A stretch of DNA of 57,179 nt from Oscillospiraceae bacterium. GTDB lineage: Bacteria; Bacillota; Clostridia; Oscillospirales; Oscillospiraceae. Each line of letters begins with the position of its first letter. Positions within the stretch are counted from its first letter, which is position 1. The stretch lies in assembly GCA_050252415.1 (NCBI GenBank), contig JBFWKZ010000001.1, positions 1-57,179 on the forward strand, given 5' to 3'. Below are positions 13,834 through 19,795 of the stretch, piece by piece. The position numbers and the translations under genes are program-made. A model generated the notes under the pieces. The model worked only from the letters and a program-made list of their open reading frames with translations. It ran no database searches and was not told the origin of the DNA.

Positions 13834-14571
13834 ATGAACTCGCGCAACAAGTATCATATTTTTCGCTTATTACATTGGCACTTGCCGCGCTTTTCCTGCT
13901 GTGTATCTATCTGCCGGACTTGTTTGCCCCGGAGGAGGACTCTGATCTTGAATACAGGCCAGAGCCAACGGAGGCCATTGCTGAGGAACCCTGTGCCGCT
14001 TAGTACGCCGGACCTTCCGGTGAATGCATCAGCTTTGCCCGACTTGGTGGACGGGCTGCCGGTTGGCCGGCTGATTATAACCGAGGCGCACAGCGAGTAT
14101 GTTGACGCGGCGCTCACATTAAAAATTCCCGCAATTGGGATTAACTACAGTATATAAGGCGGGACCGATTCAACAGCGCTTAGTAAGGGTGCCGGCCTAT
14201 ACAGTGACGCCCAGAAGCTGGTGAGGGGAACCAAAATACGCTCTTGCCGGTCACCAAAACAACATCGTTGACACAAGATCACGGATGCCGCACCGTTTTA
14301 TTATTTTGATATGCTGACAGACGGCGACGATATCTATCTCTATGATTCAGAGCACATTTATCGCCATTTGTGGGAAGCATGTTATGTTGTTGGGGCGGAT
14401 GACTGGAGCCCGATTTATACCACCGGTTATTCCTGCATTGCGATGACTTCCTGCCATCCCATCGGGATATCGGATCGCCGAATCGTCGTGTGCGGCATAC
14501 TTGCCGCCATTATGGAAAACGACGGCAACAATACATTTCCCAAGGCTGCTGCAGAGGAGATGAATCCATGA
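13834..14571 (+). pseudogene. sortase-family transpeptidase pseudogene (multiple frameshifts plus an in-frame stop)
   Basis: Sortase hallmarks are scattered over two frames:
- TM anchor 'FSLITLALAALFLLCIYLP' in frame 3.
- 'LKIPAIGINYSI*GGTDSTALSKGAGLY' in frame 1, with TAA at 14155.
- His motif 'YALAGHQNN' in frame 3.
- 'FYYFDMLTDGDDIYLY...IAMTSCHPIGISDRRIVV' (TxxC...R catalytic Cys/Arg) in frame 1.

I count at least 4 frame changes (about 13860, 13990, 14225 and 14295) and 1 nonsense codon. Confidence 0.7.
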
Positions 14572-15476
14572 AAAAATTATTTTTGAACTTAAAATTTATA
14601 AAGATTATAAGCGTCCTCATAACGATTGCTGTGGTATCGGGACTATCCTTTGCCTCCGCTGCGGAGATTCCCGCCAAGGCGGAGCTTAAACAGGGGGTCA
14701 ATGTAAACGCGAACACCAAGGCGAGTGTCGACTGGTCGAACCTCTCAGAGGGCTCTATCTCCGTAAAATACACGGGCGGGAAGGACGTTCGCATAAAAGT
14801 TCAGATTGCAAAGTCCGGCGGCGTGACCTATACCTACGACCTCAATAATGCCGGCAATTATGAGACGTTCCCTTTGGTTGAGGGCGACGGAACCTATACG
14901 GTCAAGGTATATGAGAATAGCTCGGGCACAAAATATGCCACAGTGTTCAGTACGGCTGTGGACATGACGCTGCGGAATGAGTTCCTGCCGTTTCTATATC
15001 CCAACCAATATGTCAATTACTCAGACGACTCCAAGGTTACCGCCAAAGCAATTGAACTGACTGAAGGACTCGATACGGATATCGATATGCTCTCAGCCGT
15101 TTATAACTACGTTGTCAATAATTTTACATATGATTATGAAAAACTCAATACGGTACAGTCCGGATATCTTCCCGATGTGGACGAGATACTGGAAAGCAAA
15201 ACCGGCATTTGTTTTGACTATGCCGCTGTCATGACGGCGATGCTCAGAGAAGAGGGCGTTCCCTGTAAACTGGTTATCGGCTATGCAGGAACGATCTATC
15301 ACGCATGGGTAAACGTTTATATTCAGGGAAAAGGGTGGATCGATAAAGCAATCTATTTTGATGGCGAGGATTGGAAGCTTATGGACCCGACATTTGCCTC
15401 CAGCGGCAAATCCAGCCCGGCTATCATGCAATATATTGCCAATACTGCAAATTACATGCAGAAATATGCCTACTAA
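14568..15476 (+). CDS. secreted transglutaminase-like (Cys-His-Asp core) domain protein
   Basis: Start at MKKLFLNLKFIKIISVLITIAVVSGLSFASA (signal peptide; ATGA overlap with the end of the sortase remnant). The C-terminal core is 'KTGICFDYAAVMTAMLR...YHAWVNVYI...WKLMDPT'. Confidence 0.8.
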   Translation: MKKLFLNLKFIKIISVLITIAVVSGLSFASAAEIPAKAELKQGVNVNANTKASVDWSNLSEGSISVKYTGGKDVRIKVQIAKSGGVTYTYDLNNAGNYETFPLVEGDGTYTVKVYENSSGTKYATVFSTAVDMTLRNEFLPFLYPNQYVNYSDDSKVTAKAIELTEGLDTDIDMLSAVYNYVVNNFTYDYEKLNTVQSGYLPDVDEILESKTGICFDYAAVMTAMLREEGVPCKLVIGYAGTIYHAWVNVYIQGKGWIDKAIYFDGEDWKLMDPTFASSGKSSPAIMQYIANTANYMQKYAY

Positions 15477-15697
15477 ATCAGCTTAAAGCAGGAGATTTAT
15501 CTCCCGTCCGAAACTGTTGCAAAAGTTCTCAAGGCTTTTTCAGTTGAGGATAGCCGTGCAGGACGCTTACCGCTTTCCTGTGTGAGGAGTACGATTGTCC
15601 CCCTGGTTATGCACCATGCGGTTTCTCATCCGCATAGTTTTTCGACAAGCTGAGGCGGGAGATAATCTCCCGCCCTTCTTAAATAGGAGGTCTTGTT
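15477..15697 (+). promoter_or_regulatory. structured intergenic leader bracketed by two copies of a GGGAGAT-(A/T)2-3-ATCTCC palindrome
   Basis: The palindrome copies are caGGAGATttATCTCCcg (15491-15504) and ggcGGGAGATaaTCTCCCgcc (15654-15674). Between them are further hairpins, CAGGA...TCCTG and ATGCGG...CCGCAT. The second palindrome ends 10 nt before the AGGAGG RBS of the platform gene. Confidence 0.45.
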
Positions 15698-18276: not shown

Positions 18277-19338
18277 ATGCTTGACAAAATACTGGCCAAG
18301 GCGGTTGAGATCGATGCCTCGGATATTTTGATTATTGCGGGTTTGCCCGTATCCTATAAAATTAATGGACAGATATCCAGGGAAAATTCACCTCGGCTGC
18401 TGCCTGAGGATACCCGTATGATCGTGGAGGAGATCTATGCCAAAGCCGGCGGCCGAAATATGGATAAGCTGACGGTGACCGGAGACGATGATTTTTCCTT
18501 CTCGGTACCGGGACTATCGCGTTTTCGGGTAAATGCGCTTAAGCAGCGCGGTTCACTTGGCGTTATCATCCGCGTGGTTACCTTCCATCTTCCGGACCGG
18601 CACAAGCTGGGAATACCGGATATCGTTATGGAATTTGCCTCCTATACCAAAGGAATGGTTCTCATCACCGGCACCGCCGGCAGCGGCAAGACGACGACGC
18701 TGGCCTGTATTATTAATGAGATTAATATGACCCGCAATACCCATATCATAACGATAGAGGATCCCATAGAGTTTTTGCACCAGCATCAGCACAGCGTTGT
18801 CACTCAGCGCGAGATATCGACCGACACCGTGAGTTATGATGTTGCTCTCCGCGCGGCATTGCGCGAGTCACCGGATATCATACTGCTTGGCGAGATGCGC
18901 GATCCGGAAACGATACGCGCAGCCGTGACAGCGGCTGAGACAGGGCACCTTGTCATCTCCACGCTTCATACGATGGGAGCGGCCAACACGGTTGACCGAA
19001 TTATCGACGCATTTCCGCCGGAACAGCAATATCAGATACGCACACAGCTTTCGCAGGTGCTTGAGGGCGTGGTTTCCCAACAGCTGATTACCGCAACCGA
19101 CGGCAGCCTTGTTCCGGCATTTGAGGTCATGCTGGCCAACAGTGCGGTGCGCAATATGATCAGGGAGGCAAAATCTTACCAGCTGGACAGCACAATTTCC
19201 TCGTCCGGTGGGGGCATGATCAGCATGGATCAAAGTCTGCTCCAGCTTGTCAAATCCGGACGTGTGAGTGAGCGTCAAGCGCTGCTAAAGGCCGTAAACC
19301 CTGAGTGGCTTCATAAGCGGCTTGATGCCCTGAGATAA
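18277..19338 (+). CDS. pilT: PilT-type (twitching/retraction-type) hexameric secretion ATPase
   Basis: Signatures are 'ASDILIIAG', 'RFRVNA', Walker A 'GTAGSGKTTTLA', 'IITIEDPIEF', Walker B/Asp box 'PDIILLGEMRD', His box 'ETGHLVISTLHT', and the PilT-specific 'SAVRNMIREAK' (AIRNLIRE motif). The ATG at 18277 is 7 nt after GGAGA; an in-frame GTG at 18271 is also possible. Confidence 0.85.
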   Translation: MLDKILAKAVEIDASDILIIAGLPVSYKINGQISRENSPRLLPEDTRMIVEEIYAKAGGRNMDKLTVTGDDDFSFSVPGLSRFRVNALKQRGSLGVIIRVVTFHLPDRHKLGIPDIVMEFASYTKGMVLITGTAGSGKTTTLACIINEINMTRNTHIITIEDPIEFLHQHQHSVVTQREISTDTVSYDVALRAALRESPDIILLGEMRDPETIRAAVTAAETGHLVISTLHTMGAANTVDRIIDAFPPEQQYQIRTQLSQVLEGVVSQQLITATDGSLVPAFEVMLANSAVRNMIREAKSYQLDSTISSSGGGMISMDQSLLQLVKSGRVSERQALLKAVNPEWLHKRLDALR

Positions 19339-19360
19339 ACTATTCGAGAGGAGAAAAGGT

Positions 19361-19795
19361 ATGAGTACATTTCATCGTGGTAACGCCCGTCTCCGCATTT
19401 GCGTCGACTCATCCGATGGTGGACACATCTCCGGCACGGTTTTCAGTCAGCGGCTGATAAAACCTATGGCGTTTTGTGACCTCGGCAGCCTGATTTTAAG
19501 TGTGGACGACGTGCTTGAGGCACAGAAATTTCCGCAGGCGTTCCAGCGGTCCCGCAGTTTTACGAAAGAGCAAAGAGAATGCCCGATTGCGGCCGATTCC
19601 CCGGAAGACGGAATTGCTGCAGAGCGTGTTGAAGCGGCGCATGGAAAGCTCTTGACCTTTGATATTCTGGTCATCTCCCGACGGAGCTCGTCCTGGCAGG
19701 GATTTATCGATTGGGTAGACGAAAACCGGCGTGAGGAATTTTTCAGCGCACTGGAGATTATCAGACTGGTGGATGCACATCTTTTTGATCGATAA
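19361..19795 (+). CDS. hypothetical soluble protein (last gene of the pilus-like cluster)
   Basis: 144-aa ORF 22 nt after pilT, with a GAGAGGAG RBS. No recognisable motif. It is followed by a strong terminator. Confidence 0.5.
   Translation: MSTFHRGNARLRICVDSSDGGHISGTVFSQRLIKPMAFCDLGSLILSVDDVLEAQKFPQAFQRSRSFTKEQRECPIAADSPEDGIAAERVEAAHGKLLTFDILVISRRSSSWQGFIDWVDENRREEFFSALEIIRLVDAHLFDR

Follow-up and report, generated by a model that had tools for sequence, protein, structure and literature searches.

The window analyzed in this study is a stretch of 57,179 nt of Oscillospiraceae bacterium (contig JBFWKZ010000001.1, positions 1-57,179, forward strand). It contains a gene module that was described in an earlier note on this DNA as eight co-directional genes resembling a type IV filament (T4F) system, with PilT as the only ATPase and without canonical prepilins. 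All eight open reading frames (ORFs) are present on the plus strand at the positions given below, and an independent gene caller (Logan assembly) gives the same genes with the same starts. The first gene encodes a secreted transglutaminase-core protein with a signal peptide and a β-rich N-domain (14568-15476; Transglut_core), and the second encodes a GspF/PilC-type platform protein of 350 aa with two T2SSF repeats (15698-16750; PF00482). Genes for four small proteins follow: s101, a bitopic protein of 101 aa defined by ortholog alignments (16754-17059); a DUF4860 protein of 155 aa (17072-17539; PF16152); s116, a pilin-like protein that starts at TTG and is assigned from alignments and weak pilin matches (17536-17886); and s126, a bitopic protein of 126 aa defined by alignments (17883-18263). 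The last two genes encode a PilT-family hexameric ATPase of 353 aa (18277-19338; TIGR01420) and u144, a soluble protein of 144 aa to which no family is assigned and which the ortholog distribution marks as a lineage-restricted accessory protein (19361-19795). The module is best read as a new T4F variant, the function of which we infer.

The genes from gspF to u144 are separated by tiny gaps or overlap each other, as the earlier note had claimed for the whole cluster. The gap read from the sequence is 3 nt between gspF and s101, 12 nt between s101 and the DUF4860 gene, 13 nt between s126 and pilT, and 22 nt between pilT and u144, while the DUF4860 gene overlaps s116 at TTGA and s116 overlaps s126 at ATGA. 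A Shine-Dalgarno sequence precedes each start in this run. The presence of these sites and of the two overlaps shows that the platform gene is translationally coupled to the small-protein genes, the ATPase gene and u144 (16754-19795). The claim does not hold between the transglutaminase and gspF genes, which are separated by a structured spacer of 221 nt (15477-15697). The RNA of this spacer folds more stably than shuffled controls (z = -2.94). GGGAGAT/ATCTCCC is the basis of two related inverted repeats in the spacer, and one of these forms a perfect 10+10 hairpin (15654-15674) that abuts the gspF ribosome-binding site. Rfam gives no match for the window or the cluster, spacer included. The spacer may represent an attenuator or a processing site. 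The strong terminator noted behind u144 is present as an intrinsic terminator with a 16-bp stem, 8 G-C pairs and a T-rich tail (19825-19860).

The ATPase and its platform

The ATPase passes the model of the PilT/PilU family (TIGR01420) with 406 bits at a cutoff of 319. It also matches Pfam T2SSE with an E value of 3e-44, so that the hexameric ATPase of the GspE/PilB/PilT family that characterizes T4Fs is present, and its best matches among solved structures are PilT proteins (2gsz, E 2.6e-91). The protein carries the Walker A, Asp box, Walker B and His box motifs, as well as the sequence AVRNMIRE, which is of the AIRNLIRE type, and about 29 orthologs share these motifs. It has the length of PilT and lacks a PilB-type N-domain. 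It contains only one cysteine, indicating that the zinc (tetracysteine) motif of PilB is absent. Its scores are far under the cutoffs of the GspE and PilB models. As judged from these sequence features, the ATPase of the module is a catalytically intact member of the PilT clade. The platform protein matches PF00482 in two stretches (E 1.5e-35) and is therefore a polytopic platform of the T4F type. About 55 N-terminal residues of GspF are missing from it, and its score against the GspF model (TIGR02120) is 145.5 bits, below the cutoff of 424.

These features are shared with the PilT-PilC retraction module of type IVa pili: the PilT/PilU model is passed, the AIRNLIRE-type motif and the length of PilT are kept, and the platform has the two repeats of PilC/GspF. 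However, the Clostridial module differs from the type IVa system in that it lacks PilB, PilD, PilMNO and canonical pilins, that PilT is its sole motor, that the platform gene is located first and the ATPase gene last, and that it is combined with a fixed transglutaminase-fold enzyme and a SARP-type regulator. The order platform, small proteins, ATPase is the reverse of that in comG/pil operons, as had been noticed, and is kept in the related loci described below. Domain scans of the remaining genes of the window, which are housekeeping and transport genes, detect no PilB, prepilin peptidase (PilD), PilMNO or secretin, in agreement with the earlier note.

An ordinary comG/pil operon with mis-called starts would account for a tight cluster of this type. 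The module resembles ComG (ComGA-ComGG) of Firmicutes in that the hosts are monoderm and in that one short ATPase, one platform and N-terminally anchored proteins of about 100-155 aa are encoded in a tight operon; the sizes of the four small proteins (101/155/116/126 aa) presumably resemble those of ComGC-GG. Nevertheless, the ATPase reaches 133.8 bits against the ComGA model, the cutoff of which is 300, and the platform reaches 101.8 bits against the ComGB model, the cutoff of which is 240. The module further differs from ComG in that the ATPase belongs to the PilT clade, the small proteins are four and not five, and a leader that ComC can cleave is absent. No alternative start in the small-protein genes yields a G|FTLxE leader. 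A related possibility is a pilus acquired horizontally with a mobile element or a phage, as the module is located at different places in different genomes. However, no integrase or phage genes are located nearby, PHROGs searches are empty, and the GC content is that of the host. Both the mis-annotated comG/pil operon and the mobile-element pilus are thus effectively excluded. A spoIIIA-like operon is likewise rejected, because its gene order and content do not fit this locus.

Four bitopic proteins and the question of pilin ancestry

For each of the four families, about 33 orthologs were aligned. Various results weigh against the assignment of these proteins to the pilins. The class III signal G|FTLxE is absent from all four families. 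Because the canonical leader is missing across all of these orthologs, its absence is not an artefact of start calling, and the earlier statement that none of the four proteins has this signal stands after start re-calling. No small protein matches N_methyl or another pilin model at threshold. Sequence and profile searches of the PDB with the DUF4860 protein, s101, s116, s126 and u144 give only noise. The four family profiles, when aligned by hhalign with single sequences of E. coli GspG-K and with GspC/L/M as controls, give a signal that is not separable from transmembrane bias and is no better than that for GspM/GspL. Foldseek detects no significant match in the PDB for the model of the DUF4860 protein (best E 0.14), and the variable, proline-containing transmembrane segment of s101 does not resemble a filament-core helix. 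More generally, s101, s116, s126 and u144 match no family in Pfam, NCBIfam or PHROGs, and PHROGs gives no match for the DUF4860 protein either. A Pfam search at E ≤ 10 with Christensenella-type orthologs gives nothing useful.

The s116 family nevertheless shows several features of pilins. Its N-terminus has the motif [KR]-[SATF]-x-L-[FL]-L-x-E-L with invariant L12 and E14, and hhalign aligns the invariant glutamate with E5 of E. coli GspI and GspJ. The N-terminal helix is conserved and the C-terminal domain is variable, which is the conservation pattern of pilins. Three s116 orthologs match the Tt1218-like type IV pilin family of Pfam below threshold (E 1.7e-5, 1.4e-4 and 0.036). One Christensenella ortholog is named 'type IV pilus modification PilV family protein' by NCBI, and another ortholog is named 'PilE' by JGI. 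The residue at the Gly(-1) position is variable in this family and is never glycine. The sequence comparisons therefore provide reasonable support for a pilin ancestry of s116. The transmembrane helix of s116 also contains a conserved 'LCAAVC' in the window and in the orthologs, with two cysteines one turn apart, of which C29 is nearly invariant.

The DUF4860 protein matches PF16152 with an E value of 1.2e-22. Its structure was modeled by AlphaFold2 from a 115-sequence alignment, with a predicted local distance difference test (pLDDT) value of 91.5 and a predicted template modeling (TM) score of 0.76; a 4-sequence alignment gave a pLDDT of 55. In the model, a continuous helix of 57 residues (5-61), which includes the N-terminal transmembrane segment, is followed by nine β-strands. 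The predicted structure has the 'lollipop' layout of pilins, and is unlike the ferredoxin-like αββ fold of PilN/PilO/GspM. The highest Foldseek probability is that for XcpW/GspJ (0.66, TM score 0.41), which is not significant. The N-termini of the DUF4860 protein and s116 are aligned by hhalign with a probability of 92%. An acidic residue is present at the start of the helix or transmembrane segment in most DUF4860 subfamilies, and is absent from the copy in the window. A pilin ancestry of the DUF4860 protein is structurally plausible. One DUF4860 protein (P0180) is named 'predicted lactoylglutathione lyase' by JGI, which is almost certainly an annotation error.

The N-terminus of s126 reads 'G-x-G-hydrophobic(~22)-ARADLxLS..NA.TV.aYYAAD', in which G12 is invariant and G10 is nearly invariant, and its transmembrane segment lacks glutamate, as does the N-terminus of E. 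coli GspK. This region may resemble GspK/PilX-type N-termini, a lead that no search supports. The Pfam search of the s126 family at E ≤ 10 gives only five weak PAGK matches, and that of the s101 family gives nothing recurrent. The ectodomain of s101 is highly conserved ('RRAAVQCYALEGxYP' and 'SNLMPDITVL'). The earlier note had seen a pseudopilin (GspG-like) motif in s101; the resemblance is visual only, and searches found no relative of this protein. A pilin ancestry of s101 and s126 is unproven, and homology of s101, s126 and the DUF4860 protein to pilins is not statistically established. The s101 ectodomain also contains one invariant cysteine (C50).

The four small proteins are reminiscent of the minor pseudopilins GspH-I-J-K (XcpU-X) of the T2SS (type II secretion system), also four small pilin-like proteins, and these include XcpW/GspJ, the top Foldseek candidate for the DUF4860 protein. 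Unlike in the T2SS, the host is monoderm, the matches are not significant, and neither the window nor the related loci contain GspG, C, L, M or D; the module has no GspO, and the cutoff of the GspF equivalog model is not reached.

A different explanation for these data is that the module encodes an ATP-driven membrane complex without a filament, in which the bitopic proteins are static scaffold or alignment partners in the manner of PilN/PilO/GspL/GspM and couple the motor to extracellular wall enzymes (transglutaminase and sortase) for wall remodeling or signaling. The N-termini of the small proteins do look like uncleavable signal anchors, the ectodomain of s101 is conserved while its transmembrane segment is not, three of the four families match pilins significantly neither in fold nor in sequence, and wall-active enzyme families constantly accompany the module. 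However, an all-β ectodomain on a continuous 57-residue helix, as predicted for the DUF4860 protein, is not expected from the αββ proteins of this type, and the s116 family combines a glutamate in its conserved N-terminal helix with a variable C-terminal domain in the style of pilins. We regard a complex without a filament as unlikely. Given the glutamate of s116 in the E5 register, its weak pilin matches and the layout of the DUF4860 protein, the searches do not demonstrate that the small proteins lack a relationship with pilins, and the reading of the module as a divergent T4F survives in this respect.

Conservation of the module and its companion genes

The DUF4860 family is large: among 1.84 billion proteins, its profile detects 2773 representative clusters at 50% identity. 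Thirty genome loci were collected through a conserved DUF4860 peptide (15-sequence alignment), together with seven more distant loci, in which the DUF4860 protein is about 20-33% identical or which were reached through the weakest s116 homolog. The genome loci are from Flavonifractor, Pseudoflavonifractor, Lawsonibacter, Intestinimonas, other Oscillospiraceae, Hungatella hathewayi, Family XIII and others. The distant loci, which include Christensenella minuta-type, Clostridiaceae and 'Coriobacteriia' metagenome-assembled genome (MAG) loci, encode an ATPase of 352-357 aa. The core order transglutaminase, GspF, s101, DUF4860, s116, s126, PilT is found in all 37 loci, although two of the 30 genome loci stop short of the last genes. 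The shared arrangement is far beyond chance, and the recurrence of the gene order in other Clostridia that the earlier note had asked about is thus observed. Most of the genome loci add the regulator upstream and u144 downstream. The flanking genes are unrelated from locus to locus, indicating that the module sits in differing places.

When all ORFs of the 30 genome loci were searched with the PilT of the window, exactly one secretion ATPase was detected per locus. Together with the family model passed by this protein, this result upholds the claim that a PilT-type enzyme with an AIRNLIRE-type motif is the sole ATPase. None of the 37 loci encodes a second ATPase, and in none is a PilB-type ATPase located up to about 8-9 kb from the module. 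When 113 ORFs that flank the module in the 30 genome loci were scanned with Pfam, neither a recurrent family nor a recurrent prepilin peptidase (Peptidase_A24) was detected. Thus, neither a PilB-type ATPase nor a prepilin peptidase is a constant neighbor of the module in its relatives.

The absence of these components would also fit a module that is accessory to a canonical type IV pilus encoded elsewhere. In such a case, PilT, a second platform and specialized accessory proteins would retract or modulate the pili of a distant PilB/PilD/pilin locus. The ATPase is a bona fide member of the PilT family, the module lacks an assembly ATPase, a peptidase and a recognizable major pilin, and the invariant glycine before the hydrophobic segment of s126 could be cleaved in principle. 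On the other hand, the module has its own platform, four structural proteins and its own regulator, it is kept intact as a unit across very different genomic contexts, and glycine never occurs at position -1 in the s116 family. We regard this explanation as unlikely, although it and the complex without a filament are both serious alternatives, and a self-contained T4F-derived machine is the reading that is followed below.

The transglutaminase-core protein, which is encoded by the first core gene in all 37 loci, matches Transglut_core with an E value of 8.3e-24 and has an N-terminal signal peptide. It belongs to the papain-like enzyme group, and the putative cysteine protease 3isr is the entry in the PDB that comes closest to it. 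The motifs GICFDYA, YHAW and MDPT are kept in 31 of 31 sequences, and the Cys-His-Asp triad is invariant.

A SARP-type regulator (Trans_reg_C and BTAD) with a degenerate C-terminal GGDEF-like domain is encoded upstream of the module on the plus strand (12630-13832). The E values in Pfam are 6.6e-24 for BTAD, 1.8e-6 for Trans_reg_C and 1.5e-3 for GGDEF, the last of which is below the cutoff, and the C-terminal domain reads 'SAAQF' where GGDEF is expected. The BTAD/GGDEF-like regulator that had been placed beside the cluster is thus confirmed by Pfam, with the qualification that its GGDEF domain is degenerate, and it proves to be a partner of the module in nearly all loci. Its ortholog is located upstream in 25 of the 30 genome loci, and a BTAD regulator is located upstream, divergently or downstream in L032, L034-L037 and L039. 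The window also encodes a large 7TM-GAF-GGDEF-HD-GYP protein (421-2961), which indicates that the organism has cyclic di-GMP signaling; this is relevant because the regulator of the module ends in a dead GGDEF-like domain.

A sortase pseudogene consisting of two ORF fragments (13834-14157 and 14311-14571, plus strand), assigned from orthologs and Pfam, is located between the regulator and transglutaminase genes (13834-14571). A stop follows '...GINYSI', the region of the His motif is scrambled, and 'SDRRIVVCG' is found in place of 'SDHRIVVRG'; the gene is intact in close relatives. The decay of this sortase, which had been noted, is confirmed by the internal stop and the intact orthologs. In about 20 Oscillospiraceae loci, the same slot contains an intact sortase of 242-260 aa, that of L012 matching Pfam Sortase with an E value of 7.9e-21, and in L036 a sortase is encoded downstream of the ATPase. 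These results indicate that the copy in the window is a pseudogenized partner of the module rather than a random neighbor. The description of the machine as 'minimal' is thus an understatement, because the regulator, and in many taxa a sortase, belong to the unit. Sortase substrates among the module proteins were considered and rejected, because no C-terminal sorting signal is present. A conserved 'EEV' at the C-terminus of s116 corresponds to the Shine-Dalgarno sequence of the next gene.

An ortholog of u144 follows the ATPase in 25 genome loci and in L001. It is missing from L004, L010 and L031, L006 and L007 end before its position, and the Christensenella-type loci have no u144-like gene. 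Several loci have a second, shorter u144 relative on the minus strand, in a position upstream of the BTAD regulator, namely L006 (3415-3843), L012 (3150-3350), L014 (2521-2715), L015, L016, L020 and L028-L030; the window has none.

In the window, the module and its companions are located between the atp operon upstream (atpC at 11596-12003) and ppdK downstream (20029-22653, minus strand). The earlier note had placed them in an accessory stretch flanked by AT-rich DNA. This claim does not hold up well, as the DNA is AT-rich (GC 0.40) only in the 12-13 kb bin and the GC content of the cluster (0.49-0.53) is that of the window.

Copies of the module also occur in bins labeled as non-Clostridial, namely a Bacteroides thetaiotaomicron MAG (L004), Armatimonadota (P0002) and a Coriobacteriia MAG (L033/P0264). 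L004 resembles the Hungatella locus L010 in that the gene lengths are similar and neither locus has the regulator upstream or u144. These labels are probably due to mis-binning, and less likely to transfer.

A putative wall-crossing machine driven by PilT

The motor, the platform, the four coupled bitopic proteins, the extracytoplasmic enzyme with a Cys-His-Asp triad and the regulator are inherited as a unit. Two parts of a T4F, the ATPase and the platform, are kept, while the class III signal is absent and no peptidase is encoded nearby. The divergent T4F-like machine proposed in the earlier note, with PilT as its sole ATPase and without canonical prepilins, is supported, having withstood start re-calling, the comparison of neighborhoods for PilB and the comparison with pilins. 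We give even odds to the proposition that the module encodes an envelope machine which is self-contained, is widespread in monoderm Clostridia and derives from the T4F superfamily.

In this machine, the four small proteins would be degenerate pilins comparable to the minor-pilin set GspH-K or ComGD-G, and would assemble on the platform into a short pseudopilus or stub that is rooted in the membrane. Their leaders lack Gly(-1), and processing of these subunits by a PilD-type peptidase is therefore improbable. The PilT-type hexamer would turn the platform to move the stub, as the sole motor and perhaps in both directions. PilT is the textbook retraction motor and is classically assigned to disassembly, which is a further point against this machine. 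There are precedents for the support of extension as well as retraction by a single ATPase, as with CpaF of the Tad system, which is not of the PilT clade, or by PilT itself. PilT is required for extension of the MSHA pilus of Vibrio cholerae (PMC9815625), so that there is a precedent for a PilT-clade motor that supports assembly. The MSHA system, unlike the Clostridial module, retains its own extension ATPase.

The transglutaminase-fold enzyme most likely acts on the cell wall, and the frequent sortase likewise points towards the wall. The enzyme may be a dedicated endopeptidase or cross-linker of peptidoglycan, which would allow passage of the stub across the thick wall. Alternatively, it may be the cargo that is pushed through the wall by an analogue of type II secretion in Gram-positive bacteria. 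The latter option is in line with a proposed role of type IV pilus genes as such an analogue across peptidoglycan (PMC11580942). The Clostridium perfringens system described there shares with the module the concept that, in a Clostridium, a type IV pilus-like apparatus aids the passage of folded proteins across thick peptidoglycan, but uses canonical pilins (PilA3), PilB-type ATPases and PilD, and its cargo BsaC is unrelated (PMC11580942). The regulator would switch the operon on, perhaps with its dead GGDEF domain as a sensor.

We tentatively put forward, as a possibility that we hold to be somewhat short of even, that the module represents a new T4F family without a PilB-type ATPase or a prepilin peptidase. 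Its sole motor of the PilT clade, either assembling or bidirectional, would move four subunits, derived from pilins and left unprocessed, through the Gram-positive wall together with a dedicated transglutaminase-fold enzyme. Such a family would be widespread in human-gut Clostridia (Oscillospiraceae, Christensenellaceae and Lachnospiraceae) and would be missed by the current T4F detection models, as no pilin profile matches its subunits. A published survey of T4Fs requires a recognizable major pilin even in its 'generic' model, and would therefore exclude the Clostridial module (PMC6668835). The module exposes a blind spot in system finders with this requirement (PMC6668835). If the proposal is true, a machine that is driven by PilT only and built from subunits that PilD cannot cut would test how direction and subunit extraction are set in T4Fs, and a function would be assigned to DUF4860 and three unnamed families. 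The module is of high interest for specialists in pili and secretion. It may function in adhesion, aggregation, wall remodeling or secretion. Its carriers often are gut commensals of high abundance, such as Christensenella, Flavonifractor, Intestinimonas and Hungatella, and its role may therefore matter for gut ecology. The papers of the library that was searched contain no mention of DUF4860, nor of the combination of transglutaminase, PilT, BTAD and sortase genes in Clostridia, and no description of the module, in accord with the view that the machine is uncharacterized.

Apart from the module, the window contains overlapping, near-full-length ORFs on opposite strands at 53252-54541 (427 aa on the plus strand and 421 aa on the minus strand), of which only the minus-strand ORF has a family match (Lar_N, E 1e-6).

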